A DNA stretch of 64,000 nucleotides from the IMG/VR virus record IMGVR_UViG_3300014613_000025, positions 1 to 64,000 of that record; one strand, 5' to 3'. Within the stretch, counting starts at the first letter, position 1. Every line of letters starts with the position of its first letter. Below, one piece after another: positions 20,372-48,350 of the stretch. Both the position numbers and the translations under genes were made by a program. This stretch comes from a virus (taxonomy: Duplodnaviria > Caudoviricetes). The notes beneath the pieces were generated by a model, which worked only from the letters and a program-made list of their open reading frames with translations, did not search any database and was not told where the DNA came from.

Positions 20372-20389
20372 CTAAGTGGGAGGGAAGCG

Positions 20390-29797: not shown

Positions 29798-30450
29798 TTC
29801 TCATCTTCGGAGGTGGGCCGATATCGGATGCGCTAACGCATGGCTTGCCGAACACGCAACGCTTGCATAGGTCAGAGGTTGACGTTACGGATCTTGACGA
29901 AGCCGCGTGGGCATTCAAAACATGGCACACCTCCACCTCCGTCATCGTGTGCGCGGCCCGCAACCCCAAACACGGCGATGCCTGGGCCTGGCGGCCTTTC
30001 CACGAGACCCACAACGACGGGGTTGACTCGTGGTCCGTCAACGTCGCCGGGTCCGCTAACGTGGCCCGTGCGGCCATTGCCGCGTGGTTGCCCAAGGGCG
30101 TGCGCGGTAGCATCGTCCTGATGGGCTCGATACACGGCGAAGTCTCGCCTGACCCGCGACTATACGACGGGGCGCACAAACCCTGGGAATACAGCGCCAC
30201 GAAAGCCGCGCTGCCTGCCCTGGCGCGATACGTCGCCGCTCACTACGGGCGAGACGGTATCAGGTGCAACGTGCTGGCCCCTGGCGGGGTCGACACGACG
30301 TCGATGCAGTCCTATGCGCATCGGTCGCCATCGGGTCGCATGGTGCCCCTACAAGGCGTCGTGAGCGCAGCAAAGTGGCTTTGCTCGCCAGACTCTGATG
30401 GCGTCAACGGGACCGTTGTTCGTGTGGATGATGGGTGGTGCGCGGTCTAA
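29794..30450 (+). CDS. short-chain dehydrogenase/reductase (PtmA-like)
   Basis: IFGGGPI, NVAG, MGSIHG, YSATK (YxxxK), IRCNVLAPGGV, NGTVVRVDDGW. Confidence 0.82.
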   Translation: MILIFGGGPISDALTHGLPNTQRLHRSEVDVTDLDEAAWAFKTWHTSTSVIVCAARNPKHGDAWAWRPFHETHNDGVDSWSVNVAGSANVARAAIAAWLPKGVRGSIVLMGSIHGEVSPDPRLYDGAHKPWEYSATKAALPALARYVAAHYGRDGIRCNVLAPGGVDTTSMQSYAHRSPSGRMVPLQGVVSAAKWLCSPDSDGVNGTVVRVDDGWCAV

Positions 30451-30791
30451 CCTTCAAGGATTGCCAACGCGGACGCGGGCCACTTGGTTTTAGCGTCCCA
30501 CCCTGGAGCGTCGTCGGCCATGCGGTAGCAAGGCACGGCCTCTCCGCCACCGTCGCCCAGTCGCAATTCAGGCACAGCCCACGTTGATGCTAGGTAGGTG
30601 TAGGATTCAACGTCTGGGATGCCATCCGCTAGGATGGTGCCTCCAGTGTAACCCCAGTCGCCACTCAACCCGGCCTGGGCATCGGTGGCCCCACGCTCTC
30701 GGATGATGCGGGCGGCCTTGTCCCAGTCGAAGACCATGCTTGGATTGCCAGCATTAGCCATGCCCATATCGAATGCTTGCCATGTGTTCAA
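30447..30791 (-). CDS. hypothetical protein
   Basis: GGAGG RBS; VFDWDKAARII...AGLSGDWGYTGG. Confidence 0.7.
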   Translation of the reverse strand: MNTWQAFDMGMANAGNPSMVFDWDKAARIIRERGATDAQAGLSGDWGYTGGTILADGIPDVESYTYLASTWAVPELRLGDGGGEAVPCYRMADDAPGWDAKTKWPASALAILEG

Positions 30792-30846
30792 TGTCTTTCC
30801 CTCCTAACCGTCGTATTCGCTAACCTTACCCTAACCACGTTTAGAC

Positions 30847-31638
30847 CTAGCGCAACCGCATGCCGCCAGCAATTTGGTTGAGGCGAGCGACAAGGTCTGG
30901 CCTACGGAATTCAACGTGAAGGTTGCCGTTCTTGAAGCAACGGAACGCGAAGTAGGCGGTCGCACCCTTGCCGGTGCCATCGAGCGGAGTCGACTCCACC
31001 GCGTTGTAGACGTCGGAGCGATAACCCTTGTGGGCAAAGCCCTTGCCGTCAAGCGCGGTAAAGACGTTTTCGAGTGCCGTTAGTTGCGCCGCACGGTAGT
31101 AGTTCACTCGGTAGTGTGTCGACCAGTCGCTGCTAACCATTCGCTCCAAGATGGCCTTGGGGCCAATCTCATATTCGCTGTTGGTCTTGTGCCGCGAGCG
31201 AACCGGGCGCAAAAAGTCGAACACCTCGCGCACGGCCTCACCGTGTATCTCGGTTAGGTTATCGGCGTACCCCCTGGCAAACGCGTAGACACTTGCCTCA
31301 GTGACGGGTGGCAATTCGCCCCGCTCCAACTGGTTATCAAGCTCCTTCGCACGCTTGACCGAGAGCATGCTACGAATCTCCAAGCGGTCGACAATCGAGG
31401 CCCAGACGTCTCGCTTCAATGCCTCGATGGTGCTTGACGGGTTGTCGAACGATACCCCACCATGCTGACGGTCACGGATGCGAATGGTGCGATGGTTGCC
31501 CAGCGAGAAGGCATCGTTGAGGCTAGTCTCAGCGGCGTGGATTGACGCGAACGCTGACTCGATGTCAGCGACAGCGCGGCGATACGTTGCCACGAGCCCT
31601 GCGATTGTCGCACGCTTAGCAAGCTCCGCTGTGTTCAT
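30847..31638 (-). CDS. DUF4942-domain protein
   Basis: C-terminal YFAFRCFKNGNLHVEFRRPDLVARLNQIA. Confidence 0.8.
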   Translation of the reverse strand: MNTAELAKRATIAGLVATYRRAVADIESAFASIHAAETSLNDAFSLGNHRTIRIRDRQHGGVSFDNPSSTIEALKRDVWASIVDRLEIRSMLSVKRAKELDNQLERGELPPVTEASVYAFARGYADNLTEIHGEAVREVFDFLRPVRSRHKTNSEYEIGPKAILERMVSSDWSTHYRVNYYRAAQLTALENVFTALDGKGFAHKGYRSDVYNAVESTPLDGTGKGATAYFAFRCFKNGNLHVEFRRPDLVARLNQIAGGMRLR

Positions 31639-31690
31639 TGGGTAGATTCTCCCCTATCGGTTGATGCGAAACGCCACGGTTACGGAAACA

Positions 31691-31710
31691 AGTGTAACAG
31701 GTGTTACACT
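31691..31710. promoter_or_regulatory. perfect 20-bp palindrome, candidate operator
   Basis: AGTGTAACA-GG-TGTTACACT in the intergenic gap above the DUF4942 gene. Confidence 0.55.
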
Positions 31711-31720
31711 TTGGAACGTG

Positions 31721-33748
31721 TCAGGCAACGATGCCACGCAACGAGGTGAACGCCTTGGCGAGCGAGACATCAACCGCTTGGCGTACCTCGTCCGGTTCGC
31801 GGTCTAGCGCATTCCAAACGGATTCGTTCGCACGGTTGAACCCTTCGAAGTCGCCGGTGCTAGCCAACGCGAGGTTGGCTGTTAGTCGCGCGATGTACCA
31901 CGCTACGGCATCGTTAGTACTGATAGGCATCGGTCAACCTGCTTTCTTTTCGGACTTCTCCGCTAGTTCCAAAGAGGCAAGCGCGAGGTATAGCAACTGT
32001 AACGCGTTGGACAGTTCAACCTTGCCGGTCTCAGTGATGGGCCGCATGCCCCGCAATGCCTCGATGGTGCGCACGGTGTTGTCGATTGCGTCGTCGATGT
32101 TCATTCGGCCCATCCTTTCACGGTCTCAAGCGCTTCATGGTGCCCTCAGCAGTTGCAATGCGTGTGCCAATCAGGCCGTGCTTCCCACCAGCCAAAGTTC
32201 AACCACGGTCTCAAGCGCTTCCGTCAATGCCTCGTGCCTCGTTGCCCCTGCGCCGATGATGTCGCCATCAAAGTCCAGTCCTGGGTCCACAACGAAGTAG
32301 CGCGGCAACCCTTCCTTGACGCCATCTGCATCCGTCTCTTGGACGTCGATGGCCGTAACGCCTAGCAGGTTGCAAAGCGCGCATCGGGTGTCGTCGATTG
32401 TGTGGGTGTTGTTCTTCATGGTGCTCTCAGTAGTTGCAAGTGCGATGCCACAGTTACCGGCCACGATAGGGCGAACTTGAGACGGTAGGCCGCTGCCCCC
32501 CGCCGTTGTCGTTGTCATGTGCGGCGGCATACCAGCCCTCGCGTTCGAGGTTCGACTTGGGGTTGTCCAAGTCTTGGATGGCTTCCCACATGACCCACAT
32601 GACCCAACCGTGGTGCCTGCGCTCGTTATCCTGATTCGTCATGGCGACTCCTGCCGGGGTCACCGCGACCCCGTTGTGCGGGTTGGGGTTATGCGTCGAG
32701 TGCGTACTCCGCTGCGCAAGCGCGGCACATGGTCTGGCCGTCGAGGTATCCGCCTTCGGCACGGACCGGCGACTGGCCCTCTTGCGGTTGCAGGATGCGA
32801 CCACAAGCGCAGCGGAACGCGCGGGCGGTTGCACCACGGTAGGCTGAGACCACCGCGTCAGCGTGGGCATCGGCATCGTAGCGGGCTTGGATTTCGGCGT
32901 GGGTCGCGTCTCGGTTGCTGTTGTTTTGGTTCTTCATGGTACTCTCAACCTTTGCAATGCGTGTGCCAGGTTCAGCCGCCCATCTGTTCCGCTGACTCGC
33001 GCGCTTCGTTCTCGGCAGCCGCAAAGCGGAGAGCTTCGGCGACACCCTTCAGCGCGCGCTTGCTGCCCCGGAGTGCTCGTCCACACATCCTGACCTGCGC
33101 GTCGTCGCCGAACCGGTTGGCCTCGTCGCGGAGTTTGCAGATTTGTTCGTAGGTGGGATTGCTGCTGTTGGTCTTGCTGGTCATGGTTCGTGTCCTCCTA
33201 CGGCCTCAGGCCGGGAACCGCGAAGGCTACCCGGCCGGGGTTGGGGTTGGAGAGAGCCTATACGGCTACCGTGTATCCGTTGCGCTTAGCGTGGCGGTTG
33301 ACGCCTTCGACCCATTCCTGAGCCGATTCTTCCGACACGAAGTCCATCGTGCTTTGGATGGTGATGCCTTCGAGGTTGCCAGAGATGAAGGTCTGGGAGA
33401 AGGTGAGGGTGTAGGGGTAGGGGTTGCTGCTGTTGTTTTGGTTTTTCATGGTACCAATTCCTAATGCAAACGCGGTGCCAATCAGGCCGGGGTGTGCGCG
33501 CGGACGAGAGCACGAACCGTGTTTTCGTAGGTTGCCGTGAAAACCCAGATGGCGGCATCGTAATCGCCAGCGAAGGTAGCCTTGGGGAATTCAACCTGAA
33601 ACGACTGCCAAAGGCCCATGCTCATATCGGTATCGGGTTCGTCTCCGCTAAAGACGCAGTAGTTTACGTGATCTTCCGCAGCGTCGACTGCGAACTTGAT
33701 GACGCGAGCGGTTGTCTTGCCGATGTCGTATTGGGTGATGTTCTTCAT
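31721..33748 (-). CDS. block 1 small ORFs (33482-33748, 33258-33449, 32972-33184, 32689-32937, 32454-32642, 32171-32419, 31934-32104, 31721-31930)
   Basis: starts fixed by a sigma54 motif 17 nt upstream or by an SD; no recognisable domains. Confidence 0.7.
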
Positions 33749-33779
33749 GGTGCCCCCAACCTATGCACTCCGCATGCCA
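32154..33779 (-). promoter_or_regulatory. block 1: five sigma54 (-24/-12) promoters
   Basis: 32154-32169 TGGCACACGCATTGCA; 32435-32450 TGGCATCGCACTTGCA; 32953-32968 TGGCACACGCATTGCA; 33465-33480 TGGCACCGCGTTTGCA; 33764-33779 TGGCATGCGGAGTGCA. Confidence 0.88.
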
Positions 33780-33846
33780 CGCGCAACCCGAAAGCGTAAA
33801 CGCCTAGAACGAGGCTGCGCCGCGCATATCATTGCGCCGCCAGACC

Positions 33847-34236
33847 ACGACTTTGAAGTCAGGGCCATGCAAACTTTGCCGATTCGTCCAAAAGTGTATG
33901 GTCACTATTTGGCCTTGTCCTTAGAAACAAGCGGTATTGCGTTTGGTTGCGCGGATAACAACCATGGCATCCATGTCATGGTGTGCGAAAACGTCGGGGT
34001 TTTGGGGGTAACTTCAGCAGTCCTAATGTTACCGCGAGACGCTACCGGGGCCAGCGCTGACCATGACATCCATGTCATAGCGGATGGCCCCCAAACGCGC
34101 GATGCTCGGTAAACGTAGGCTAACGTCCCCATGACATCCATGTCATAGCAAACCGGGTCGGCCTTGCCATGCTGCGCGAATACATGCGCAGCGATAGCGT
34201 TTTCGCGTTGCAGGGCGACTATGACATTGATGTCAT
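33847..34236. repeat. palindrome cluster A: 5 x A(T/C)G(A/G)C-N6-GTCA(T/G)
   Basis: copies start at 33847, 33964, 34063, 34131, 34221. Confidence 0.85.
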
Positions 34237-34481
34237 ACCCATGAACCATGCCTAGAAAACGTCTCTCCGGGTCAACCGCTGGCTTGGTGCTCCACCCTCG
34301 CCGCGCAGGGTGGCCATGATGGCGAGGACATGCGCTATCGTATCGCGAGCCGCTTGTGTCTCGCACACGTCGGGGTCGGACGCTATCGGGGTTATCGCGT
34401 TCGCAAGCTCAGCCGCTAGGTCCGCCGCGTTGAAGGGCCGCTCGCTAGCGATACGCCTAGCGGCGTGGATGCCAACCAGAC

Positions 34482-37400
34482 TCACGACGGCCCCGCAGTG
34501 CCGCGAGGTTGGCTGTAGCGGGATTCCGCTACCGCCCCGGCGCAAGCGTCGCGAGCGAACCGTTGGGCCACCTCTGACGGGTAGCTGCCCCCGTCATCGA
34601 GGTACACCCCCAACGCTATCTCGCATAGCTTCACCTGTTCAGTGTCGCCAGCCATGGCGGCTTCGTTGAGCAAGTCGCCAATCTGTCTGTCCGTCACGTA
34701 GTTTGATCCCATGTTATTCGTCCTTCTCGGTTGCTGAGATGGCCTTTGATAGCGCCAGCGCGGTGTGCAGGATGGCGACCTGGACAAGTTCTCTGCCTTC
34801 AGCGGTAGACGGTTCGACCTTGTGTAACGCGTCCAGTGCCTCGTCCAGCGCCGCTAGCGCGGTAGCGTGCGGGGTGTGGTCCGTGGTCATGACAGACGGT
34901 CCCATCCGCCGTTGCGCCGCTGGATTTCGACACGACCCCACGCGTCGTCAAAGTAGGGGCGCATGGCGCGAGCGAGCGCACGCTCCGCGCTTGTCACGGA
35001 CTTGGCGCGCGTCGCGATGACGTGGCCGACATCGTTACCAGTCTCGCCCACTACCAACCGGAAGGTTGAGCCGTAGGCTTCGTTGGGGTCGTTCTTGTTC
35101 GTGGTCATGTTCGTGGTCTCCTTGTCTCTCAGCGTTGCAAGCGTTACGCCAACTGCCAACCCTTGGGCAAGTCACACGGCAAGAATTCCGCGTTACCGGC
35201 AACGATAACCCCGACCGTTGGGCTCGCGACGCAACCGCACGCGCCGTCGCCAAAGGGCGACCCGTCCCACGGCACGACGCTAACGAGGTCAGCACTAGCG
35301 TTGTGCGCGCACACCTCCGCAACGTCTCGCGACTCGACCATCACACACCACTCGTTCGCGCTTGGTCCTTCCAGGTCGAACCAGATTGCATCATCGCAAG
35401 CGAGTCCGTTAGGGTCTCCGCCGCGAAGGGTGGCGATGTGGAGCGCGCTGGGCTTGGTTGTCGTTGTCATGTTCGTATCCTCCTACGCGCCTAAGCCTGC
35501 AAGGCGTGAGCCAAGCAGGCGAAGCGGTGTGGGTTGTGGTTAGAAATTGTAATCGTAGTACTTGTGCCTCGCTCCGATGGTAACGCGTTCCGTGCTGCGC
35601 GACACTCGCCAAGTGCCATCCTTGCGGAGCGTGGCCTTGGTGGTGGGGCCATCCAAGTCTCGTTCGTAGGAGTAGCGCTGGACGCCTTCAGTATGGCCGA
35701 AGAACCCACCAGGTGTGAACGTCAACGCGTCAGGTTCGCCGGAATTGAAGCCGTTGAGCAGGGTGGCCTTGTCGCGCTGCAACGTGATTGTCTTGCCGTT
35801 AGCCGACACGGCGATGACGGTTTGGGGAGTGGAGTCGCTGTAGTGGTGAATGGTGGCACCGTCACCAACCGCAGGCTTGTTCCGCGCCAACCGCATGGCC
35901 TTAGTGAACGAACCTCCGCAATCACAGACAATATTTCGGACGTCCAATACTGATGGGGTGCGCCCGTGGCGCTCCATGGTAGCGACGATGATTTCGCGCA
36001 GCGAAGCGGTAGCGATTGACGGGTATGTCCAGCGCAGTAGGTAGTCCTCGCACAGTTCGTCAACGCGCTCGTTCTGGGTGTCGGTCAAGGTTGTCGTTGT
36101 CATTGTCGTTGTCCTCCTACGCGTTACCTTTGCAATTCTAGTGCCACCGCTACGCCCTAGCCAAGAATCCTTTGCGGATTGCCAGGTACGCTTGCGACTG
36201 TTCGTTGCGGCCATGCTTCGCACACGTTGCAGCCATACGGCCAGCGGCATCGGCAGCCATCATGGCGGCATCAACCGAGCCGTTGTAGCGGGCGAGTGCA
36301 AAGACCTTGGCTGCGCGGGTTGGCGTCAAGGAGCCGCTCAGTATCTCTTTGATTTGGTCGATGTAGTTCATGACATCTTACCTTTGCAATCCTCGCGCCA
36401 ACTAGCGCCCGGTGTGCCTGAGATACCAGCGGACCGCGCCCGATTGAGTCTTGAACGTCTTGCTGACGGTAAACGTCATGGCGAGCCAAGTGCCGTCCGG
36501 TTGCGCGAAAACGCCGCTCGACAGGCTCTCGTTGTTGCCCATGTCAAGGGTCCGGTTCGTTACGGTCGGGGTTGTCGTTGTGGTCTTCATGATGCTTTCC
36601 TTCGGTGCAAACCTGATGCCAACCGCTACACTTCGACGATGACGCAATCGCCATTGTCGATGGCGCGCACGAAGCTGGCGGTAGCACTGTTGGCCCAATA
36701 CGAGCCGCAGTTTTCGAGGTAGCGCGAGAACACGCCAGCAAGTTGGGCAGACCTGAAAGTCTTGCGTGCGCGCTTGCCATTGATGGGGTCCGTGTAGCGG
36801 ACCGTGGTGCGTCCGGTACGGGTTGTCGTGGTCTCGATGTCGGCGTTGTATTGAGTCGTCATGATGCTTGTTCCTTATGCGAGCGGCGTGCCAATCACTC
36901 CCACGAACCGTTACGCGTTCGGGTCAAGCCAACGGAGCGGCGGATGCCGTTGCTCGCGCGAGCCCTGGCGTTACGTGCGTTCCGCGCCTTGTCCTGCGTT
37001 GCCGCTTCGGTGCGTGCGCAAGTGCGTCCAGACTCGGTCAACGAAAGGTAATCGGCGTCGAATACGTCGCCTTCTGCGAGGCCGTAGGCCACAAGTGCGC
37101 CGAGAGTCTCCCATCCGCATCGCGGGGTCTGGTTGAGGTAGAGGGCCAGGAGTGCATCGCGCTGGGTTCTGGTGAGCTTATTCATGGGAGATTCCTTATG
37201 CGATACTTGTGCCAAGTGGTCTAGCCGTTGTGGCGATGGCCGCTGCCGTTGCAACGGTAGCAGCAACCGCCGTTAATGTGGCGGTACTCAGGCAGCACAC
37301 CAGTCCCACCACAGCGCGGGCACTTGGCGGCTTCGCGCTCTGCGTTGGCGACTGCTGCCTGAACCTGGTAAAGCGCATCCAAGCGCGTTTCCGTGGCGGA

Positions 37401-37857
37401 ATCCATGGCCTTAGAGGTGGTCGCCATCAACAGGGCCAGCGGGTCGAAGGGTGCGGATGCATCGTAGGAGGCGTCAAGCGTCGGAGCGAAAGCAGCGCGA
37501 ATCTCGGCGATACGGTCGGCGATGGCATCGGAACCGGTTGCGATTGCCATTAGGTCAGCAACCACTTCGTCGTCGAGTGCGAGGAGGGCGGTGTTTTCGT
37601 TGGCGTTCATGATGATAATTCCTAATGCTAGATGCGTGCCAACTTGGCTAGCGAGCGCGGCGAGTCTTGCGAGTGGGCATCGTCAATTCGATATCGTCCA
37701 CCGTGAGGGTATTGACGGCCTTGGTGGTATTGAGCCAGCGGACGCAGCGGTCGCACATGCAACGCCCCGCATCTTCGGAATCCATAAAGCAGACGTTGGT
37801 TCCGTAGGTGGGGTGGTTGGTGTCGATGGTAACGTTGGCGTGTTCTGCGTTCGTCAT
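34482..37857 (-). CDS. block 2 small ORFs (37648-37857, 37221-37610, 36895-37185, 36626-36862, 36402-36590, 36150-36371, 35540-36103, 35144-35470, 34887-35108, 34714-34890, 34482-34712)
   Basis: nine have their own sigma54 motif; 37221-37610 ends in a CPRCGGTG...CYRCNGSG zinc ribbon. Confidence 0.7.
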
Positions 37858-37888
37858 GGTGCTTCGACACAATGCAACAGCGATGCCA
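35136..37888 (-). promoter_or_regulatory. block 2: nine sigma54 promoters
   Basis: 35136 TGGCGTAACGCTTGCA; 35498 TGGCTCACGCCTTGCA; 36131 TGGCACTAGAATTGCA; 36385 TGGCGCGAGGATTGCA; 36606 TGGCATCAGGTTTGCA; 36878 TGGCACGCCGCTCGCA; 37199 TGGCACAAGTATCGCA; 37626 TGGCACGCATCTAGCA; 37873 TGGCATCGCTGTTGCA (16-bp, lower coordinate given). Confidence 0.88.
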
Positions 37889-37978
37889 ACCAGACAACCT
37901 AGCCCAACCGCATATCATTACGCTGGCACTGCACGGAACCACCGATGTTCAGTGCTTTGGCGGGGCTGAAATGTATGG

Positions 37979-38443
37979 TGCCATACATGCAGGACTAAAC
38001 GTATGACTTCAATGTCATAGGGCCTTTAGCGCTTTGATTCTCGATGAAACGTGACGCCAAAGGGGAATGACCATACATGTAGGAGCAAACGTATGACTTG
38101 AAAGTCATAGGGCCAAACCGTCACGATGTGCCTAGAAAACAAGCGTGGCGCGCAAAGCGTGGCTGAATGACCATACACGTAGGAGCAAACGCATGGCGCC
38201 GTGGTCATACTGAACAAGGCCCAACCCCATCGAGCGGACCTTGGCGCCGTGGTCCGATGTCGAATGTTCGCGTTGGCCTTGTTCTGTAGCGTTTAGCGTT
38301 CGTTGGGCCACGAGTCCGCAACGTTTGCATACCACCACGACATCAAAGTCATAGGTGTTTCGGGTTCGCGGAATGCCTTGAATCGTAGCGGCAAGCGCGG
38401 CGTGACCATACATGCAGGAGCAAATGCATGACTTCAATGTCAT
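37979..38443. repeat. palindrome cluster B: 5 palindromes, four embedded in a ~45-bp direct repeat
   Basis: palindromes at 38003, 38093, 38193, 38337, 38428; unit GACCATACA(T/C)G(T/C)AGGAGCAAA(C/T)G(T/C)ATG(A/G)C-N6-GTCAT. Confidence 0.85.
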
Positions 38444-38617
38444 GGTGCTGTGTGGGATAGCGTGTGGGCTGGTGGCAACCTGTGGGAGCTATTCGTTGAC
38501 AGCGTGGAATAGTGCGGCGTTTTGGACGGTGGGCCATTGCTGGGCCAAGGATGGGCCTAGGACGCGTCGGGGTGGCGCCATGGCATCCAAGGCCAACCTG
38601 TGGCCGAAAGGGCCGTC

Positions 38618-41600
38618 CTAGGCCAACGTCGCGCGCCAATACCAGAGACCGCGCGCGCCGGTTGACTGGTAGAATACCTCGCCACGGTCCCCAACGTCTC
38701 CGTGGGTTGGAGCGCCGATACCGTGCAGGTAGTATCGTTCGCCATCATCCGCGCGGATTGTCCAGACGTAGGCGTTATAGTGGCAGGGTTTGCCTACGAT
38801 GGTAGCTGGTTTGCCTGTGGGCGAAATGTCAAGGTAAGCCTGGGCCAACCTAACCATGTTGGGCGCTCCGGGTATTGCGTGAGATACCAGATACTCTGCC
38901 AATTGCCTGGGTGACATGTCGTCGGGGTCGATTGGATTATTCTGTTCCACTATTCCTCCTTACAGGCTCAGATAAAGGCCGGTCTCATCGGTGAACAAGG
39001 TCTTCAACCCATCGGCGTAGATGTCGCTATGCGCGCTGCGCTTGGTTGCCTTGCCGCCACGGACCGTCCAGAATTCAACGGTGTAGGTGTCGCTAGGGTC
39101 CAAGCGAACCTTGACCATGTTTGACTTGTTACGGGCGCGCGCCTTGAACCGGAATGACGCGGTGTCCTCCGTCCCGAAGAACGATGACGCGCCAAGCATG
39201 GCGGAGAGTCGGCCCGTGCCGCCCATCTGGGCTAGGATTGTGTTTGCAACTTCGAGGTTGGTTTGCGTTGTCATGATGCTTTCCTGTCTTGCACGAGCCG
39301 TGCCATCACTTGCTGGCGAGGTAGGCAACCACTCGGCGCAGGTCGCGTGCGCCAAGGGATCCGAACCTGTCAGCGATCCATCCGCCGTCCGAGTCGCTAA
39401 CGCTAGCGCTCGTTCCTTTGCCGCAAGCGGAAGGGGTTACGGTAAGCACTGCGTCAGCCGGAACCTGGCGCACGCGAACCTTGGTCCCCTCGTAGCAACC
39501 CGCGTTGACGTAGGCGAGCGGTTGGCCCCAAAGGGCGGAGCAGAGGTCAGCGGCTGAGACGGTGATGGGGTTGGTGAAGTTCGTCATGGTGTTGGTTCTC
39601 TTTGCACGAGCCGTGCCACTAACGCAGCATGCCCCGCGTGGCATGCGCCAGCGGGGCGGTTGGCGTGGGTTCTGGCTACACGCTCTCGGCCACTTCCTGC
39701 AAACGCCGCATCCAATACGCCTTCTCTTCCCTGCCGCCAATCACCATCTCATTGGCTGCGCGGCAAGCCTCAACGTGCGAGTAAAACCCGCACTCGCCAG
39801 CGTTGGGCGCGTTGGCAACGAGGGAGGCGAATCGGGCCTTGCCAGCAAGGATGCAGCGTTCGGATTTGGCGATCTGGTTGGTGATGTAGGTTGCGGTATT
39901 CATGGTTCGTGTTCTCCTTGCCAGATAGCAATGCACTCCGCGTGCCAACCGCTACCAGTCCTCCAACCACTCGATGGTGGCCCCGTCTTCCAGCAAGGCC
40001 CACGGGCGGCCATCGTGGTAAACGAGCACGAACCAAAGATGCCACTCGCCGATTTTGTTACACACGTGAGGGCGGCCCATGATGTCGCTGGTTTTGATGT
40101 AGTCGGAGCAAGCGGCTTGGGTCGTGAAGGTCATGGTATTCATGGTGCTTGGTTCCTTTGCGAGACTCGTGCCAATGTCTACGCTATCCTGAGACCTGAC
40201 ACCAGCCTCTGGTTCGCTCGGCTGTAGGTGGCGGTGCTGACTCGGTCAAGCTCTGCCTTTGCCGCTGCATCGCCAGTCCACGCCTTCGTTGTCTTGTCGA
40301 ACGCGAATCCGCAGTCGCGGAGCAGTTTCGCTGCGGGGTAGGTGTTTCCGGTGATGGTGACTGTGTTCTCGTTGTTCATGATGACTCTTCCTTATGCACT
40401 CAGCGTGCCAATCATGCCCAGGTTTCGGTGCAGAGTACCTCGAACCCATTGACGCGACCCTTGCTGTCAAGCGATTCGCGCACCAGTCGGCGGACCTTGC
40501 GGCAAGTGTTGGTCTCCCAGAAGCAGCGGTATTCGACGGTCGGGGCCACGGTCGACTTGGTGTTGTTTTGGTTCTTCATGGTACAAGTTACCTTTGCACG
40601 CGTCGTGCCAGGTTCAACAAAACTAACCGTTCAGCATCCCCAGATCCAGATCTGGTAAGTGTTCAGATTGCCGTGTTCATGCAGATATTCGAGCGCATCG
40701 GCGAAGTCTTCGCGCGTCCAATCGAGCACGCGGATCGCTATCGATTCGTTCGAATAGCGCGGCTTGCGCGTTAGCATCTTTCCGTAGTCGTCGAGGTTCC
40801 ACTCACCTCCCCTGGCTCCTCGTTCCAACAACGCACGCAAGCCACGGGGGGTAAAAGCCCAGTAGTGATCGTACTGCTGAACGTATATTCTAGACATTGC
40901 AGCTATCTTCCTTGTCCAACCTAAGTTCCGTCGCTACGATCCTGCGAATGTAGGCTTCAATTTGGTCCCGCGATGCCATCCCAGGAATCCCTAGCCGCGT
41001 GGCTATCGTGCGGCGATCTTCGTCAGTTACCTCGACCAAAACTCGAATTTTCATGTCCCCCCCTACGCTCGGCAAAGGTGGACCCAGATCGACTTGATCG
41101 TCCACGTCCCATAGTCGGCATCGTCTACCATGTCCAAGTCGAACATGCGGTCGACCACGGCGTCCGAAACCCGGCGCTCCCACACGGGCCGAGCGGAGTC
41201 GAAGATCGACCACATTTTCTCGCCAAGGCCCGGCCTCATCAGAGTGACGGTCCCAGTACACTCCGCGAGGGCCTTTCGCAATCCGGCGGGTAGGCGAGCG
41301 GGGTTGTTGTCTGTGCCCGCGGTGCGCTTGCTCGTGCTCTTCATGGTTCGTGTCCTCCTGCTTGTTATCATTGCATTCAGCGTGCCAATCACTCCCCGCA
41401 GAATCCGTCGTCGCATAGACAAGCCGTTGCGTTGCCTTTCGCCCAATCCTTGGCCGCCGTCAAGGCTCGGAACCACTTGCTCTTACCATTGTCCAGGCAC
41501 ACTTCGTATTCGGTCCCATGGATTTGGCTTACAAGCACCGTGATTGTTCCCTCGCTATTCCCATCGATGGCGACGTCAATCCGTGCGCTTCCGTCCCAGT

Positions 41601-41897
41601 TGGTGACCTTGTCTCCGAACGTGACCTTGTTTGTTTGAGTCTTCATGGTACAAGTTACCTTTGCAGGACGTGTGCCAACCTGACGGCTCACTCGAATTCG
41701 GCGAACAGGTCAGGTTCGCCATCGGCGTCCACCGGGCGACCCTGGGCGACCCAATCGGCCTTGAATGCAGCGTGGCAAGCGGCAACGCGAGCGGATTCCG
41801 CTGCATCCGCGCGTCGCTCCTTAGCGGTGCGGTAGTAGTTCGCGGGGTTGCTGATGTAGGCGTGGACGTCTGCGAAGCTGGTTTGGTTGTTGTTCAT
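38618..41897 (-). CDS. block 3 small ORFs (41688-41897, 41389-41646, 41063-41344, 40890-41054, 40631-40897, 40412-40579, 40179-40379, 39952-40143, 39676-39903, 39306-39587, 38960-39274, 38618-38950)
   Basis: nine have their own sigma54 motif; 40412-40579 (55 aa) is not in the ORF track; 38960-39274 (ANTILAQMGG...VRLDPSDTYTVEF) resembles a widespread phage/ICE hypothetical. Confidence 0.7.
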
Positions 41898-41928
41898 GGT
41901 GCAATCCTACCTAGCACGCACTGTGCCA
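39290..41928 (-). promoter_or_regulatory. block 3: nine sigma54 promoters
   Basis: 39290 and 39603 TGGCACGGCTCGTGCA; 39932 TGGCACGCGGAGTGCA; 40159 TGGCACGAGTCTCGCA; 40395 TGGCACGCTGAGTGCA; 40595 TGGCACGACGCGTGCA; 41372 TGGCACGCTGAATGCA; 41662 TGGCACACGTCCTGCA; 41913 TGGCACAGTGCGTGCT. Confidence 0.88.
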
Positions 41929-41997
41929 ATACCCCAACGACACCGCGAAGCGCTACGTCTACCGACGAAAGCGCGTTCCACTGAGTGGATTCATACC

Positions 41998-42331
41998 ACG
42001 ACTTTCAAGTCGTGCCTGTGCAAAGTTTGCCGGTTTGGCCAAAAACGTATGGTCACTGTTCCGCGATACGCTATGAAACAAGGGTTAGCGTAACTTGCGC
42101 ACACCTGAACACCGCACGACTTTCAAGTCGTGGTGTTGCTGGCATGCCTTGTTTTGTGGCGTTTGGCAAAGGGTACAAGTAATGCTGGTACCCTTGGGGC
42201 CACGGCCCGCAACGGTGTGTGCGCTTGGTAGGACATGTGCGCTTGCCATGGCGTCAATGTCATACTGAACAAGCCAAACCGCACGACTTGCCGTAACCTG
42301 TAGGCTTTAGCCACCACGACTTCGATGTCAT
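41998..42331. repeat. palindrome cluster C: 4 copies
   Basis: 41998 and 42116 ACGAC-TTTCAA-GTCGT; 42248 ATGGC-GTCAAT-GTCAT; 42316 ACGAC-TTCGAT-GTCAT. Confidence 0.8.
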
Positions 42332-42441
42332 GCTGAACAAGCCCCAATGGTGCACGGTTGTTGTGTTTGGCTTTAGTTGTGCGGATATCGTGGTAGGCGG
42401 CGGGTATGGCGTGGATGTCGTGGTGGGTGTGCGTTCAGTGT

Positions 42442-43524
42442 CTAACCGACGATGCGCAACCCGGCATCGGCGACCATGGCCCGCACGATGTCAAGCGGAA
42501 GGTTGACCACCGCGACGCACCAGCCGTATCCGTAGCGCGTACGGCCCTCGTATTCATCGAAGCCAATCCGGCGCAGGGCGCGGATAGCAACGCCACGAGA
42601 CGTCGCCTCAACCTCATATTCCCCAGCGGTATCCTGGTGGCTCAACTTGGTCGCAAGCGCACGGACTGCCTTGCGTGTCGAGTCGTCTCCGGTCAAGGTC
42701 GCGAGGCAATCGCCACCCATGGGACCGTGCGAGGTCAGGAAGACGTTGCCAATCCTCGCGCCGCAGCACACGCATGAGATGTTGGCAAAGGTTCCGCCAA
42801 GCGCTTCCAGGGCCGCTGGCGAGCCAGCAACCGCGAATCCTTCGAGGGCCACGCCGTCAAACTTGTCGCGGATCTTCTGGGTAAGTCGCATCGTCGTCTC
42901 CCTCTTCTCGTTGTCCTTGGTCGCAACCGTTGGAGTCGAACCAACCTTATACCACAATCACCCTGGTGGGCGCTCGCCGGAGCCTTTTCGTTGTGGGCTG
43001 CGATGCTTGGTGAGTATGCGAACGGCGTGCCAAGCTATGCGGCACGCTGGCTTTCCAACAGCGCTAGCCGCCAATACGCGGCCTCAAGCCGCTCGCCCAC
43101 ACGGAGGCCGTGCCAGGTGTGGGTTACGCCAGCGAACCGCCTATTGTTTAGGTCGCGAATCTCGACCTTGAGGTCAAGGATGCGACGTTGGATAAGCTCA
43201 GGAGTCATGCGGGTTGTGTTCGTCATGGCTCTACTCCCATGCACTCAGCGTGCCAAGCGCTCAGCGCGTTACCCTGAACCCCTGCGAGGTTGCGTTCAGG
43301 TAGACGTTCTCGGCGGCGATGCGGCAGTTGTTGCGGTGCGTTTCGGCATCGAGCAGAGCTTGCGGCCACTGCTCAGGTACACCGGCGCAGATCGTAGCGT
43401 ACCGCAGCGCATTGTATGCGTGAATGGCCTTATCGTAGGCTTTCGTCGCCTTGTTCATGGCAACCTTGGCAGCGCGCGCGGTCGGGAAGGTCTTGGTCTC
43501 GGCGGGGTTGGCTTGGTTCGTCAT
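42442..43524 (-). CDS. block 4 small ORFs (43261-43524, 43035-43226, 42442-42891)
   Basis: two have own sigma54 motif; the third has a GGGAG SD downstream of the tRNA-like RNA and CVCC...GGDC cysteines. Confidence 0.7.
42918..43002 (-). ncRNA. CCA-ended tRNA-like RNA without D or anticodon arms
   Basis: acceptor CGCAGCC/GGTTGCG + A + CCA; T arm GTTGG-TTCGACT-CCAAC; 5' end 16 nt below the -12 element of promoter 43017. Confidence 0.75.
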
Positions 43525-43555
43525 GGTGCAAACCCACTATGCACGCACCATGCCA
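43017..43555 (-). promoter_or_regulatory. block 4: three sigma54 promoters
   Basis: 43017 TGGCACGCCGTTCGCA; 43240 TGGCACGCTGAGTGCA; 43540 TGGCATGGTGCGTGCA. Confidence 0.88.
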
Positions 43556-43623
43556 CGCAACACAAAAACGCGAAACGTCTACTCCCACAGGGACAACGTT
43601 GTTACACTAAGTAGATTCACACC

Positions 43624-44023
43624 ATGGCATTCAAGTCGTGCTATTGCAAAAGTTGCGTGATTGACCCAAAAGTGTATGGTCATTCCAAACGCGTCCTCAA
43701 CGTTTCCGACATGTTGCGCGCCTAGTGAGTCATTCTTGACCCATGGCAAAACGGTCCTGGTCTGCACGAAGTGTCTTGTTTTGTAGCGGTTTGCGAAACG
43801 TGGCGGGCTAGGTCTGCCAGGTGTCGGGTTGTCGCGGCGAGACGATAGCCAACGGCCTACCATGACAGCGGTGTCATAGCAAAACGTCACATTAGCGAAT
43901 CCTTCGAGGTTTACGCTATGACATTGAAGTCATAGCATCGAGGTCCAAGACGGCTACGATGTGCTGGCGTGGCTTGTTCTGTAGCGATTGAGGTACGCGT
44001 GGCGGGTATGACATTGATGTCAT
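43624..44023. repeat. palindrome cluster D: 4 copies
   Basis: 43624, 43862, 43918, 44008 (last is TATGACATTGATGTCATA). Confidence 0.85.
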
Positions 44024-45005
44024 AGGGTCTTGGCGGAGCGAAGGATTCGCGACGAAAGCGAGGTCAGCGCGTCACGGACCTTGCCGTCGCCATCGTCGTC
44101 CGCGCTATTGACGGCGTCAATTAGTCGCGACCATGCGGCTTCCTCTGCTCCCTCGTTGACGTGTAGCACGCCTGCGGCATGGTCGAACGTGCCAGGAAAC
44201 GGCTCGTAGTCGCCGTCAAAGGCCAGGCAATCGTCAAACGCGGGGTCGAATACATAGATGGTCAACCCGCACGCCTGAATCTCGCCTACGCGGAATGTCG
44301 CCATCAGATGCCGCGACGCGCGCGCTCCTTTTGGAACAAGGACAATTCGGTGAGGTATCTTTCGCCGCCCATGCGCTGAACCCAGCTATTCGTGGCGGTA
44401 ACGGTGAGCAGTCCTTCAAGAGCGAGGGAGCAGTCGCGATGCGACCACACCAGCTCGGAGTCACTCATCTTGCGGATGCGGTCGGCGATGCGCTTGGTTG
44501 CCTTGTCGGTGTTCTTCATGGTGCTTTCCGAGTATGCGAACGCTATGCCATCGTTGCCGTAGCCTCAAAACCGCCAGGCTCGACACCCAAGCCATGACAC
44601 GAATGTCATACCTAAACGCCGTTTCGCGATATTCGTGAGGTTTTCGCTATGACATTGGTGTCATGCTTAGGCGAGCGGTTGTCGGCTCGCTTCGCAATGT
44701 GCCTTTATTTGTAGCGATTATGCGCGGAGCGGGTGGTATGACATTGGTGTCATGGCAGGCTGTGGTCATGCGTACATGGCGGCGTTCAAGGCCAGCCACG
44801 CTGCATCCACATGCGCGTTCAAGGTCTTGGCGTAGAGCCAGCGCGCCATGTTCACAGCCTTGCGGCTAGGCTTGCGGCTGCTGCTAGTGACGCACTGGAT
44901 CCTGATCTCACCCAGGCAATCACAGGCGAACAAGTAGCCCCCGACTGTAACCGTCATGGGTGCGCCGCTGCCGTCCGAGTAGACTTCGATTGCTGTGGTT
45001 TTCAT
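44020..45005 (-). CDS. small ORFs 44766-45005, 44304-44519, 44020-44304
   Basis: first two start 14 and 17 nt below sigma54 motifs. Confidence 0.65.
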
Positions 45006-45122
45006 ACCATCCTGCCTAGCACGTCGCATGCCAACGGTCCCAAACCCGTCCGCTAGCGCTTGACCATATCTCGCCGTTCCCCTCCAGCGGGAGTGACCCA
45101 AACCTGTGCACGTCGCATGCCA
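44535..45122 (-). promoter_or_regulatory. three further sigma54 promoters
   Basis: 44535 TGGCATAGCGTTCGCA; 45018 TGGCATGCGACGTGCT; 45107 TGGCATGCGACGTGCA. Confidence 0.82.
44594..44753. repeat. palindrome cluster E: 3 copies
   Basis: 44594 ATGAC-ACGAAT-GTCAT; 44649 and 44738 ATGAC-ATTGGT-GTCAT. Confidence 0.85.
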
Positions 45123-45165: not shown

Positions 45166-45767
45166 ATGAGTGAACCCAAACCAGGTGAACGGCCCGACGT
45201 TGAAGGCGTCTTTGAACGACTCCGCCAACGGTTGGATGACATTGTGCCGATGCCACGCAAGACAGTCGAGGTGCTTGCCACGCTGCTAGGTGGCCTTGAC
45301 GCTAGGCGAGAGGTCAGATGGCGCAAGCGTGAACATCGAGTCAAGAACCGCAACGAACGGCAACGGCGCGCACTGTCGCGCAGGAAGGCGAGACGATAGC
45401 AATGCAACAGAGACCAGCAAAGGAGCACGATACCATGGCATGCACGAAGCGTATCGCGAAGGCTGCGAAGCACTTGGACAAGGCCGCCGACCTGTTGGAC
45501 GATGCCATTGACGACTACTACAACGAGGAGGTTGGTCAACGTGTTCCCACGCGCGAGGACGTTATCGCGCATGCGGCAAAGGCCATCCTAGACAATGTGT
45601 CAGCGCGCGGTGCCGTGGTCCTGTTCGGCCAACGTGACAACTGTGTGGCATTGACTGACACTGGGCCACTTCGCGCATCGCCTGCGGCCCAGATAGCTTC
45701 GCTGCTAACACTGGCCGTGCGCGAGGCAATCACGCAAGCGTATCAGGAGGCCAACGGCGATGACTGA
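45166..45767 (+). CDS. two hypothetical proteins (45166-45399, 45435-45767)
   Basis: first starts 24 nt after CCTAAAC; second has AAGGAG RBS and overlaps the cytidylyltransferase start. Confidence 0.55.
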
Positions 45768-46881
45768 CAACGTCGTAGCCATCATCCCAGCGCGAGGCGG
45801 CAGTAAGGGACTGCCACGCAAGAACCTGGCAATGGTTGGCGGGTTGCCGTTGCTCGCGCGCGCTATCGAGACCTGCCGCGACGCGGGTATCGCTGACATC
45901 GTGGTCACGACAGACGATGACGAAATTGCAGCGGTCGCACAATGTCATGGCGCGCAGGTTGTTCGGCGACCGTTGGACTTGGCTAGCGACACCGCCACAA
46001 GCGAGGATGCCATCTGGCACGCGCTAGACGTGTGTGGCATCGATAGCGGGACGTGTGCGTTCGTGCAATGCACGACTCCGCTGTTGACGTCTGACGAGGT
46101 GGCGCACTGCGTGGCGTTGGCAGAACTAGGCCGCAGCGCGTTTACGGTCTATCCGCACCACAACGTTTTCTGGTACGATGATGAACCGCTTAGCACACTG
46201 CCACGCAAGCCAAGACAGCAATGCAAGCCGCTGTGGAAAGAGACTGGCGGATGCTATGCGTTCCCGGTCGAGGCATTCATGCGCAAGCGCTCGCGCTTCC
46301 CGACTGAGACCGTTATGGTCCGCTCAGAGTATGGCATTGACATCGATGATGAAAACGACCTGGCGGCGGCCAATGCGATTGTGCGTCGCGGTTTGACAAG
46401 CCCTGGCTTGCGTAGCCGATTGTCGCGCGTTCAGTTGCTCGTCCTAGACTTCGACGGTGTGCTAACAGACAACCGCGTGTTGACCGACAGCGATGGGCGC
46501 GAGGTGGTATCCTGTTCCAAGGCTGACAGTTCGGGCATCATACTGCTCCAACGCGCTGGCGTTCGGGTTGTGTGTTTGACTCACGAGCACGACAGGTCGG
46601 CACTGTTACGGTGTCGCAAGTTGGGCATCGAGTGTGTGCAAACGTCGGGGCTAAAACCGTTAGCCCTAGAGACAATGCTACAAGGCACACCGCTAGAGCA
46701 AGTCTGCTACGTTGGCAATGACGAACCCGACGTTGCGTGTATGGCAATGGTTGGCGTGAGCATGGCCCCGCATGATGCGGAACCGTGCGCGCTTGATGCC
46801 GCTCAGGTTGTGCTAAAGCGCAACGGTGGAGACGGCGCCGTACGCGAGGCGTGTGAGATGATTCTGGAGGCGCAATGCTAA
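45760..46881 (+). CDS. neuA: acylneuraminate cytidylyltransferase fused to KdsC-like HAD phosphatase
   Basis: AIIPARGGSKGLPRKNL, VQCTTPL, IDIDDENDL; then LVLDFDGVLTD and YVGNDEPD...GGDGAVRE. Confidence 0.92.
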   Translation: MTDNVVAIIPARGGSKGLPRKNLAMVGGLPLLARAIETCRDAGIADIVVTTDDDEIAAVAQCHGAQVVRRPLDLASDTATSEDAIWHALDVCGIDSGTCAFVQCTTPLLTSDEVAHCVALAELGRSAFTVYPHHNVFWYDDEPLSTLPRKPRQQCKPLWKETGGCYAFPVEAFMRKRSRFPTETVMVRSEYGIDIDDENDLAAANAIVRRGLTSPGLRSRLSRVQLLVLDFDGVLTDNRVLTDSDGREVVSCSKADSSGIILLQRAGVRVVCLTHEHDRSALLRCRKLGIECVQTSGLKPLALETMLQGTPLEQVCYVGNDEPDVACMAMVGVSMAPHDAEPCALDAAQVVLKRNGGDGAVREACEMILEAQC

Positions 46882-48300: not shown

Positions 48301-48350
48301 ACCCGTTTGACGTATTAGCATAGGACAACAGAACAACAGGACAGGAGAAC

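Follow-up and report, generated by a model that had tools for sequence, protein, structure and literature searches.

The window, a 64,000-nt stretch of the 73-kb contig of an uncultured groundwater phage, contains an accessory block of small genes spanning about 13 kb. The probable explanation of its layout is that the block is a string of self-contained sigma-54 cassettes, activated via islands of palindromes and giving rise to leaderless-type transcripts. The array proper consists of 29 motif copies, the first at 32154-32169 and the last at 45107-45122 (Table 1).

A sequence-only reading had reported 29 minus-strand TGGC-N9-GC(A/T) motifs in 32154-45122, and we recovered the same 29 sites. 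The loose pattern, TGGC-N9-GCW, has 58 matches in the window, where shuffled sequence yields 30.2 ± 5.5. Minus-strand matches within 32154-45122 make up about 36 of the 58. A strict pattern, TGGC[AGT]Y-N5-N[TCA]GCW, was compared with 1000 Markov-1 simulations. The block minus strand (32.1-45.2 kb) has 30 matches, and the simulated mean is 0.84 (maximum 4). A single match lies on the block plus strand and five are in the remaining 60 kb, both strands included. Motif density elsewhere is not equal, with six strict motifs in the rest of the contig against 30 on the array strand. A position weight matrix (PWM) scan of the full 73-kb record returned 30 minus-strand matches, 29 of them in 32148-45122, and one weak plus-strand match; since the PWM was trained on the same 29 sites, only the contrast between inside and outside is informative. 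The phages taken as negative controls, namely distant terminase relatives and those that share the DUF4942 gene, have approximately 0-1 strict motifs per 20 kb.

The sigma-54 consensus is TGGCAC-N5-TTGCW or, in extended form, YTGGCACG-N4-TTGCW. The array agrees with it at all defining positions and at exact spacing, as had been claimed. The GG and GC doublets (TGGC-N9-GC, one helical turn) are invariant in 29/29 sites. TGGC is followed by A (26/29), then C or T (29/29), then G (16/29), and is preceded by T at 20/29 sites. Position -14 is T in 23/29, and W follows GC in all 29. At -15 there are 16 T and 11 G (n = 29); G is the less usual base here in sigma-54 promoters. Sigma-70-like promoters are not in excess in the block, and no minus-strand terminators were found. 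The array promoters are embedded in repeats of 40-60 nt that extend into the first codons. Identical 16-mers recur (P32968 = P32169; P39618 = P39305; P40410 = P43255). No signal of RNA folding is seen in the elements (mean z -0.12, with no element under -2). In a variant contig from run X4, the promoter core is at identical coordinates and spacer letters differ; the P41387 coordinates read TGGCACTGTGCGTGCA. One low-depth contig of the same run connects position 32905 with 41338, close to two cassette starts.

Cassettes share a common order: stop codon, TGGCAC-N5-(T/G)TGCA, 10 nt and a conserved G-C/T-A at the predicted +1. Intergenic gaps of 30-48 nt are exactly filled by the promoter element. 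The predicted +1 was placed at position +26 from the T of TGGC, taking the C of GC as -12. This base is G at 22/29 sites, followed by C or T at 28/29 and A at 25/29, regardless of whether an ATG, a Shine-Dalgarno (SD) sequence or a tRNA-like RNA lies downstream. Measured from the last base of GCW, the ATG is 15 nt away at 17 sites, 13 nt at three, 12 nt at one and 27-28 nt, with AGGAGG, at five. Counted from the G of GC, these are the near-fixed distances of 14-17 and 29-30 nt described in the earlier reading. The other three of the 29 sites are 32169 (a decayed cassette), 43032 and 45122 (a tandem copy). Site 43032 is the motif previously noted above a tRNA-like RNA, which we confirm; the RNA starts at predicted +5/+6. 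P45122 sits in a divergent control region, opposite a plus-strand operon beginning at 45166.

The ATG is thus at predicted +6 or +4 in 21 genes and at about +18, behind AGGAGG, in five. SD sequences occur only in cassettes with a long leader, just downstream of the predicted +1 (5/5). In 11/21 short-leader cassettes an AGGA-type word precedes the ATG by 9-13 nt and lies upstream of the predicted +1. Such words could be weak SD sequences on read-through transcripts, with partly polycistronic reading. The small ORFs are real coding sequence because their codon usage correlates with that of the phage large genes in frame (r = 0.78; 0.11 and 0.22 out of frame). Neither the leaderless-type start nor the palindromic, enhancer-like islands had been noticed in the first reading.

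Table 1. Coordinates of the block, its sigma-54-type promoters and genes, and the palindrome islands.
Feature	Coordinates	Strand	Description
Leftward block	30447..45005	-	~36 small genes, 55-263 aa, mostly ORFans; 27 genes/RNAs with own sigma-54-type promoter
P45122	45107..45122	-	TGGCATGCGACGTGCA; tandem copy 89 nt upstream of 45033; without own ORF
P45033	45018..45033	-	gene 45005-44766, 79 aa; ATG 12 nt past GCW
Island A	44594..44753		in non-coding gap preceding P44550; 3 perfect ATGAC-N6-GTCAT
P44550 (head)	44535..44550	-	gene 44519-44304, translationally coupled to gene 44304-44020; nearest palindrome begins 59 nt upstream
Island B	43618..44023		3 perfect copies, one degenerate (~84 nt upstream of P43555); GCAA-N-TTGC element
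P43555 (head)	43540..43555	-	gene 43524-43261
P43255	43240..43255	-	gene 43226-43035; 13-nt spacing
P43032	43017..43032	-	tRNA-like RNA, then SD-led ORF 42891-42445
tRNA-like RNA	42918..43002	-	7-bp acceptor-like stem, T arm GGUUCGACUCC, ACCA end
Island C	41992..42331		4 degenerate copies, ACGACTTTCAAGTCGT twice; proximal ~85 nt upstream of P41928; also GGCAAACTTTGC
P41928 (head)	41913..41928	-	gene 41897-41688
P41677	41662..41677	-	gene 41646-41389
P41387	41372..41387	-	gene 41344-41063; long leader, AGGAGG
P40610	40595..40610	-	gene 40579-40412
P40410	40395..40410	-	gene 40379-40179
P40174	40159..40174	-	gene 40143-39952
P39947	39932..39947	-	gene 39903-39676; long leader, AAGGAG
P39618	39603..39618	-	gene 39587-39306
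P39305	39290..39305	-	gene 39274-38960, 104 aa
Island E	38003..38443		upstream of P37888; 5 copies, repeat unit 44 nt
P37888 (head)	37873..37888	-	gene 37857-37648
P37641	37626..37641	-	gene 37610-37221
P37214	37199..37214	-	gene 37185-36895; 13-nt spacing
P36893	36878..36893	-	gene 36862-36626
P36621	36606..36621	-	gene 36590-36402
P36400	36385..36400	-	gene 36371-36150; 13-nt spacing
P36146	36131..36146	-	gene 36103-35540, 187 aa; long leader, AGGAGG
P35513	35498..35513	-	gene 35470-35144; long leader, AGGAGG
P35151	35136..35151	-	gene 35108-34887; long leader, AAGGAG
Island F	33841..34236		4 copies, proximal degenerate copy (~83 nt upstream of P33779); also GGCAAAGTTTGC
P33779 (head)	33764..33779	-	gene 33748-33482
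P33480	33465..33480	-	gene 33449-33258
P32968	32953..32968	-	gene 32937-32689
P32450	32435..32450	-	gene 32419-32171
P32169	32154..32169	-	decayed: 6-codon ORF at usual 15-nt slot; real ORF at 40 nt, gene 32113-31934

The sigma-54 holoenzyme strictly needs an enhancer-binding AAA+ protein. No Sigma54_DBD, Sigma54_CBD or Sigma54_activat domain is encoded by the 73-kb contig. Hence, host factors are implied. Domains of sigma-54 or of enhancer-binding ATPases are also missing from five other module-bearing records, two of which are complete. Completeness of the contig is 78% (CheckV), and an activator gene could lie in the missing part, but complete module-bearing phages also lack one. The likely readers of the promoters are host sigma-54 and an activator, the latter probably host-encoded. 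The myxobacterial or other deltaproteobacterial host suggested in the earlier reading is a conjecture.

The palindrome ATGAC-N6-GTCAT occurs 23 times in the window; 2.0 ± 1.4 copies are expected. Seventeen of the 23 fall in five non-coding islands in the block, heading promoter runs. About 23 of the 29 array promoters have no palindrome within 130 nt. A probe of IMG/VR with the palindrome only gave 32 loci; in 16 of these a strict sigma-54 motif, directed away from the palindrome, follows 57-170 nt downstream. Palindrome-promoter spacing shows helical phasing with a period of 10.5 bp (R = 0.34, p ~7e-4; copies not fully independent), and divergent promoter pairs flank palindrome triplets. A survey of 401 Pseudomonadota genomes did not reveal the palindromes as a host feature, and no exact IHF consensus site is present.

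On these grounds we propose the following mechanism. Host RNA polymerase with sigma-54, assuming a host rpoN, would form a closed complex at each promoter. These complexes would be opened by an AAA+ enhancer-binding protein that is not phage-encoded, probably a host protein of matching specificity, which would bind the palindromes in the five islands. Head promoters would be reached from about -80 to -110. Internal promoters, without their own palindrome, might be served by looping over up to ~3 kb or by activator from solution. The downstream part of each cassette would supply the G for initiation and, after it, a leader of 3-5 nt up to the ATG or one of ~17 nt that carries AGGAGG. Most transcripts would then be leaderless-type mRNAs, translated from the 5'-proximal AUG.

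The design is shared. The earlier reading knew of no description of such an arrangement; we likewise found no published account of such a sigma-54 array, but the arrangement is not unique, as at least two unrelated phages (G007 and G008) have it. The motif count is 15, within 7.3 kb, in G007, about 10 in G008 and lower in G009. Their layout is GCW-N10-G-C-ATG, placing the ATG at predicted +3 with no SD-like word. The search of other phage contigs also returned three short ones, L145, L192 and L118, with the same cassette design. Among the unrelated phages the flanking repeats differ, and core and geometry are kept. Module-bearing phages range in GC from 0.45 to 0.70, and one record is 618 kb. 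Of the array proteins, only the 104-aa product of the P39305 cassette has homologues in G007 and G008, and these too are sigma-54-promoter-proximal. G007 has a homologue of the tRNA-like RNA element, under a sigma-54 promoter. Small Fis-type HTH (HTH_8) proteins adjoin the modules in G008 and G009 only. No protein family beyond ParB/methylase types is common to G000, G007, G008 and G009.

An unlikely alternative is that a factor specific to the phage (a sigma-like protein that escaped recognition, an RNA polymerase-redirecting protein or a phage RNA polymerase) reads the motif, with the palindromes as co-regulator operators. The lack of an encoded enhancer-binding protein, despite the strict need of sigma-54 for one, would fit such a factor, whose gene could be in the missing part of the contig, as would the Fis-type proteins beside modules in G008 and G009. 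However, the motif matches the universal sigma-54 consensus, position by position, and no protein family occurs in all phages that carry it. Pfam and PHROG screens detected no phage RNA polymerase or sigma domain. The variable spacer and variable -11 to -1 region fit a bipartite sigma-type element rather than a contiguous phage polymerase promoter.

Less probable still, the sites bind the sigma-54 holoenzyme but act mainly as sigma-54 sinks, closed-complex roadblocks or insulators, the block being transcribed as a long read-through RNA from few upstream promoters. Closed complexes are stable and silent, and PMC4591121 speaks of many non-productive sites in E. coli. The missing activator gene, the scarcity of nearby enhancers, the AGGA-type words before half of the short-leader ATGs and the lack of terminators between genes agree with this. 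Yet a sink or roadblock needs neither a fixed start-codon distance nor a conserved +1 G. Every site is oriented along the gene direction, and long-leader SDs are always directly past the predicted +1. In G007, G008 and G009 an ATG at +3 without an SD-like word is sensible only if the RNA begins there. Least probable of all, and very unlikely, is that the repeat marks a recombination or mobility boundary of gene cassettes, or an RNA processing or translation signal, its sigma-54 likeness being incidental. Repeats running into first codons, recurrent 16-mers and the 32905-41338 join suit a boundary, though recombination at promoters can result from repeats and need not be their function. The flat folding profile, invariant letters that coincide exactly with the doublets contacted by sigma-54 in an otherwise variable repeat, and a core and geometry that are constant in unrelated phages despite different flanking repeats all oppose it.

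Sigma-54 promoters are silent until an ATP-driven activator acts and are independent of sigma-70. If the block is a sigma-54 regulon, such control could hold accessory genes fully off until a particular host signal, or sustain their expression while the phage shuts down sigma-70 transcription. Cassettes could let the phage swap genes as autonomous units and, at a compact 32 nt, could serve as tight, orthogonal expression parts. Occurrence in unrelated environmental phages makes the module look like a general, unstudied layer of phage gene control. The model yields concrete predictions, namely 29 start sites and five candidate enhancers. A broader proposal, to which we give a small chance, is a widespread undescribed strategy of plug-in accessory cassettes (sigma-54 promoter plus leaderless start) with shared enhancer islands. 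The activator would be a hijacked, signal-sensing PilR-like host protein, which would make the phage express its accessory genes in response to a host signal, or else a factor opening sigma-54 complexes without a recognisable AAA+ activator. The latter is considered because complete module-carrying genomes encode no such ATPase.

The Pseudomonas phage YuA reportedly has three sigma-54 promoters, in its structural and lysis region. It is the closest precedent found, being a tailed phage without a sigma-54 gene that uses host sigma-54 for part of its transcription, as predicted here. YuA differs in having few rpoN-dependent promoters (Ceyssens et al. 2008, as given in Putzeys et al., doi 10.1101/2023.10.13.562163) rather than 29. 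The present block thus has about one for each small accessory gene, together with enhancer-like palindrome islands and leaderless-type starts. Experiments tested RpoN dependence in YuA; here it is predicted from sequence.

Comparison with glnAp2/NtrC, pspA/PspF and pilA/PilR reveals the same -24/-12 core and palindromes centred ~75-110 nt upstream of the start. As at classical sigma-54 promoters, one enhancer, here a putative one, is common to divergent promoters and there is helical phasing; unlike them, most phage promoters have no enhancer of their own. The half-site TGAC/GTCA is that found upstream of 21 proteobacterial sigma-54 pilin promoters. The pilin (PilR-type) enhancers are TGAC-N7-GTCA (14 copies versus one with N6), whereas the phage palindromes are ATGAC-N6-GTCAT. 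We rejected a PilR-type pilin enhancer given this spacing and the absence of a driven prepilin gene; the G-F-T-L-I-E prepilin signature occurs neither in the phage nor in palindrome-bearing loci. Predicted phage leaders are 2-5 nt, while the pilin genes, picked by requiring 50-80 nt between GCW and the prepilin motif, have leaders some tens of nt long that include an SD.

Host-takeover modules of SPO1 and T5 consist of small genes with individual promoters that use the housekeeping sigma. T4-type phages are said to have hyperplastic early regions built of promoter-early stem-loop cassettes, one promoter per small ORF. The block resembles these in its many small ORFans with their own promoters and its repeated promoter cassettes, which might promote shuffling. 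It differs in having a sigma-54-type core and leaderless-type starts, with no terminators or stem-loops, in place of sigma-70/sigma-A and stem-loops. Leaderless or short-leader mRNAs include lambda cI from PRM and are widespread in Actinobacteria, Deinococcus and Caulobacter. We found no literature report pairing leaderless starts with enhancer-dependent sigma-54 promoters. The likeness to leaderless mRNAs is a transcript without an SD whose 5' end, predicted here, coincides with the AUG or precedes it by a few nt. The difference is that the predicted leader is not 0 but 5 or 3 nt long, and 2 nt long in G007, G008 and G009.

An array of 29 sigma-54-type promoter motifs had been proposed by the sequence-only reading, and motif statistics confirm it. 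The loose pattern TGGC-N9-GCW, where GCW is the end of the -12 element, occurs 58 times in the window compared with 30.2 ± 5.5 in shuffled sequences, a twofold excess. Of these matches, approximately 36 fall on the minus strand within 32154-45122. With the stricter pattern TGGC(A/G/T)Y-N5-N(T/C/A)GCW, the block minus strand has 30 matches where 0.84 would be expected, and the highest count among 1000 simulations was 4. Density elsewhere was not equal: the block plus strand has one match, and the two strands of the other 60 kb together have five. A position weight matrix scan of the full 73 kb placed 29 of 30 minus-strand matches within 32148-45122. Other phages of similar GC content, used as negative controls, gave approximately 0–1 strict motifs per 20 kb.

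Alignment of the 29 sites revealed an invariant TGGC followed by A (26/29), C or T (29/29), G (16/29) and a variable spacer. The -12 part consists of T or G, T (23/29), an invariant GC, and A or T (29/29). At the sequence level, this core is the sigma-54 consensus TGGCAC-N5-TTGCW. The G at -15, found in 11 of 29 sites, is unusual. Sigma-70-like promoters are not in excess in the block, and a reading of the motif as an RNA hairpin was rejected; the 40-nt elements carry no RNA-folding signal. On sequence and comparative evidence, assignment of the array to the sigma-54 type is well supported.

The block ORFs are genuine coding sequence and nearly all are ORFans. Inside promoter runs, intergenic gaps measure only 30–48 nt. 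Hence, each promoter starts at or beside the stop codon of the previous gene. With the C of the invariant GC set at -12, the predicted +1 is the 11th base after GCW. This base is G in 22 of 29 sites and is followed by C or T (28/29) and A (25/29), regardless of the downstream feature. In 21 cassettes (promoter, short leader and small gene) the ATG is 15, 13 or 12 nt on from GCW, so that predicted leaders are 5, 3 or 2 nt, typically GCACC-AUG. Five cassettes have the ATG 27–28 nt on, with AGGAGG or AAGGAG directly after the conserved G-Y-A. Among promoters, named here by coordinate, P45122 is a tandem duplicate of P45033, and P32169 heads a decayed cassette. No minus-strand intrinsic terminators were found in the block and nested read-through transcripts are therefore expected. 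Half of the short-leader cassettes contain an AGGA-type word 9–13 nt before the ATG, inside the -10 to -1 stretch. This could serve as a weak Shine-Dalgarno (SD) sequence on read-through RNA, and translation of part of the block may be SD-assisted.

One array promoter had been placed above a tRNA-like RNA, and P43032 bears this out. Here, the RNA occupies the slot of the ATG in other cassettes and an SD-led ORF follows. The element is in the 5' region of ORF 42891-42445 and has no normal D or anticodon arms. It was not called by ARAGORN or Rfam, and Rfam gave no family match across 30.0–46.5 kb at E <= 1. The start of a homologous element (GCATCGCAGGCACCGACGAAAA) is found under a sigma-54-type promoter at 38143 in another phage, G007. 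In phage G008, several sigma-54-type promoters lead into sequence without a nearby ATG. In view of the tRNA-like RNA in the sigma-54 block, an RNA-repair-like set in the plus-strand operons is of interest. This comprises tRNA-Thr(CGT), a Thg1-type tRNA-His guanylyltransferase, an RNA ligase with a PHA02142 OB fold and a cREC receiver-domain protein.

Palindromes of the form ATGAC-N6-GTCAT number 23, compared with 2.0 ± 1.4 expected, and 17 fall in five islands within the block. Every island occupies a larger non-coding gap upstream of a promoter run. A conserved stretch of approximately 150 nt is common to three regions that head such runs (P43555, P41928 and P33779). It includes a degenerate palindrome, starting approximately 83–85 nt upstream of TGGC, and a GCAAA-N-TTTGC element. 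At P44550, a perfect palindrome starts 59 nt upstream. Measured from the palindrome centre to TGGC, the spacings follow a 10.5-bp period (R = 0.34, p about 7e-4, n = 62, with copies not fully independent) and show no phasing at 9–10 or 12–13 bp. Approximately 23 of the 29 promoters have no enhancer of their own. We conjecture that these would be activated either from an island as far as 3 kb distant, through looping, or by activator in solution. The exact IHF site WATCAA-N4-TTR is absent from the whole genome. A second palindrome, GCAAA-N(1-4)-TTTGC, is found between the ATGAC palindromes and the head promoters and could be bound by a further DNA-binding protein.

Uniqueness of the arrangement is not supported by a search of other phage contigs; the same layout was found in L145, L192, L118 and phages G007 to G009. 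The three contigs, recovered from metagenomes with a promoter-plus-leader probe, have 4–5 cassettes each in 2–6 kb. In L145, a divergent promoter pair has three palindromes between its members, and GCAAACCGGTTTGC, the L145 form of the second palindrome, flanks both promoters at positions closer to each. Probing IMG/VR with the ATGAC palindrome only returned 32 loci. In 16 of these, a strict sigma-54 motif was 57–170 nt downstream and pointed away; such motifs account for 27 of the 71 motifs in 277 kb. Phage G007 (99.5 kb, complete) has 15 motifs in 30.8–38.1 kb and four palindrome clusters, while G008 (93 kb) has approximately 10 motifs, with divergent pairs around palindrome triplets. G007, G008 and G009 share a GCW-N10-G-C-ATG layout that places the ATG at the predicted +3. 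Internal promoters of these three phages abut the end of the preceding gene at its stop codon, and no palindrome is present within 130 nt of them. These phages have almost no proteins in common with the window's phage. That unrelated phages keep the -12 element and the ATG at a fixed distance makes sense only with the RNA 5' end at this place. We take this spacing as the strongest indirect evidence that transcription would initiate at the conserved G. The only array protein of the window's phage with counterparts in G007 and G008 belongs to an ORFan family (…QLGG.G.LSAMLGA…KAN.V.V.LD..DLY.V…TGLYLSL) with no match in Pfam. In each phage it is near a sigma-54-type promoter and a palindrome cluster.

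Coordinates of features in the window's phage and in the phages and contigs compared
Feature	Position	Strand	Description
Plus-strand operons	~3.6-30.4 kb and ~45.2-73 kb	+	
Small-gene block	30.4-45.0 kb	-	
tRNA-like RNA	window 42918-43002	-	acceptor-like stem, canonical T arm, ACCA end
RNA-repair-like set	window 20295-20372, 21094-21840, 26157-27200, about 20.3-20.8 kb	+	
Conserved ORFan family	window 38960-39274; L237 12930-13259; L247 4389-4982	-; -; -	
GCAAA-N(1-4)-TTTGC	about 43640-43655, 42020-42035, 33868-33882; L145 1360-1373, 1577-1590		second palindrome
CCTAAACG(C/T)(G/A)T	window 20239, 22175, 24891, 27217, 45142, 48296 (+), 50018 (-)		second motif
Fis-type HTH_8 proteins	G008 33408-33776 (+), 17809-18117 (-); G009 83451-83903 (+)		

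We then considered what might read the modules. No sigma-54 domains or Sigma54_activat ATPase are encoded by the 73-kb record, by G007 to G011 (two complete genomes and one 618-kb record among them), by G001 or by the source record of contig L049. The last of these is a true relative of the window's phage, with helicase and methylase approximately 70% identical, yet it has only one good site in 14.7 kb. Besides ParB/methylase-type genes, the module-bearing phages have no protein family that all of them share, and no common phage-encoded binder was found. Hence, host sigma-54 with a host enhancer-binding protein (EBP) would be the parsimonious readers. PilR was examined as a candidate for the latter. 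Of 151 Pseudomonadota genomes, 18 yielded a total of 21 pilin genes driven by sigma-54; upstream of these, we counted 14 copies of TGAC-N7-GTCA versus one with N6. The half-site is the same as in the phage palindromes but the pilin spacing is one base longer. Identity with PilR was rejected because of this N6 versus N7 difference and because the phage modules drive no pilin genes; the PilR literature yielded no site matching the phage palindromes. ATGAC-N6-GTCAT with a sigma-54 box gave only chance-like, intragenic matches in 401 Pseudomonadota genomes. The relaxed N6 core gave 14 matches and the reversed control 5, no genomic context recurred, and the exact and relaxed modules were at chance level in the 401 and 151 genomes. 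A PilR-like protein from a clade outside the sampled genomes may serve as activator, or something else may do so.

Fis-type HTH_8 is the DNA-binding domain of NtrC-family activators. Small proteins of this type are encoded beside modules in G008 and G009, and not in the window's phage, G007 or G010. They have no ATPase, and one is directly upstream of a palindrome and sigma-54 promoter. Such proteins could act at enhancers as competitors or mimics of the host activator.

The record (73,113 bp, linear, estimated 78% complete) is an assembly from groundwater metagenomes, and its first 64 kb make up the window. It encodes tailed-phage proteins (Mu-like portal, large terminase, prohead protease, tail sheath and baseplate), a replication module (helicase, primase, DnaB and replication initiator) and two radical-SAM enzymes. 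A nonulosonic-acid pathway at 45760-50234, directly right of the divergent control region, comprises a NeuA-like cytidylyltransferase fused to HAD, NeuB and a 627-aa MptE/Maf-like protein. No cultured phage gave a megablast match to the record; the portal and DnaB reach no more than 33% identity with those of cultured phages. By these comparisons, the phage has no close cultured relative. Terminase relatives (at most 42% identity) are without arrays, as are the unrelated temperate phages that contain DUF4942 homologues. Two block proteins used as single-protein probes had no matches in IMG/VR. Prophage-like terminase matches, at 36% identity or less, are spread over many phyla and gave no host assignment. 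The suggested myxobacterial or deltaproteobacterial host is not supported.

The -24/-12 promoter and the palindromic upstream sites are classical parts. In Pseudomonas phage YuA, sigma-54-dependent promoters are documented, and these are few (doi 10.1101/2023.10.13.562163). For a T4-type phage, an EBP-like early protein has been put forward in a recent preprint. Full-text literature searches turned up no account of an array with one sigma-54 promoter for each gene, of shared phage enhancer islands or of sigma-54 promoters coupled to leaderless starts. Not described previously are the scale (29 promoters, approximately one for each gene), packaging into 32-nt cassettes, coupling to leaderless-type starts and occurrence in phages that are unrelated.

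The promoters sit within 40–60-nt repeats whose downstream part takes in the first codons, and several 16-mers recur unchanged in more than one cassette. These repeats are consistent with cassette duplication or recombination. DNA contigs of four groundwater runs were near-identical and thin, yielding one variant promoter and one low-depth joint. The variant, on a low-depth contig of another groundwater run, keeps TGGCAC...GTGCA at the exact coordinates of P41387, with different spacer letters. The joint, from metagenome run X4, links 32905 with 41338 through 7 other letters and so omits 8.4 kb. Each end is a short way inside the start of a cassette; strains may have recombined at the level of cassettes, or the assembly may be chimeric at the repeats. 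At 33180-33202, a copy of the long-leader SD and ATG segment (GGAGGACACGAACCATG) precedes ORF 33184-32972 with no recognisable sigma-54 core upstream, and may be a cassette whose promoter was lost.

Enrichment was also seen for a second motif, CCTAAACG(C/T)(G/A)T (15 copies with at most one mismatch versus 4.0 ± 1.9 expected), which may be another promoter or -10-like class. In four cases it is exactly 16 nt before an SD-less ATG of the plus-strand operons. CCCAAAC variants are interleaved with P45033 and P45122 in the divergent control region. Copies also adjoin some of the palindromes, and L145 has one copy.
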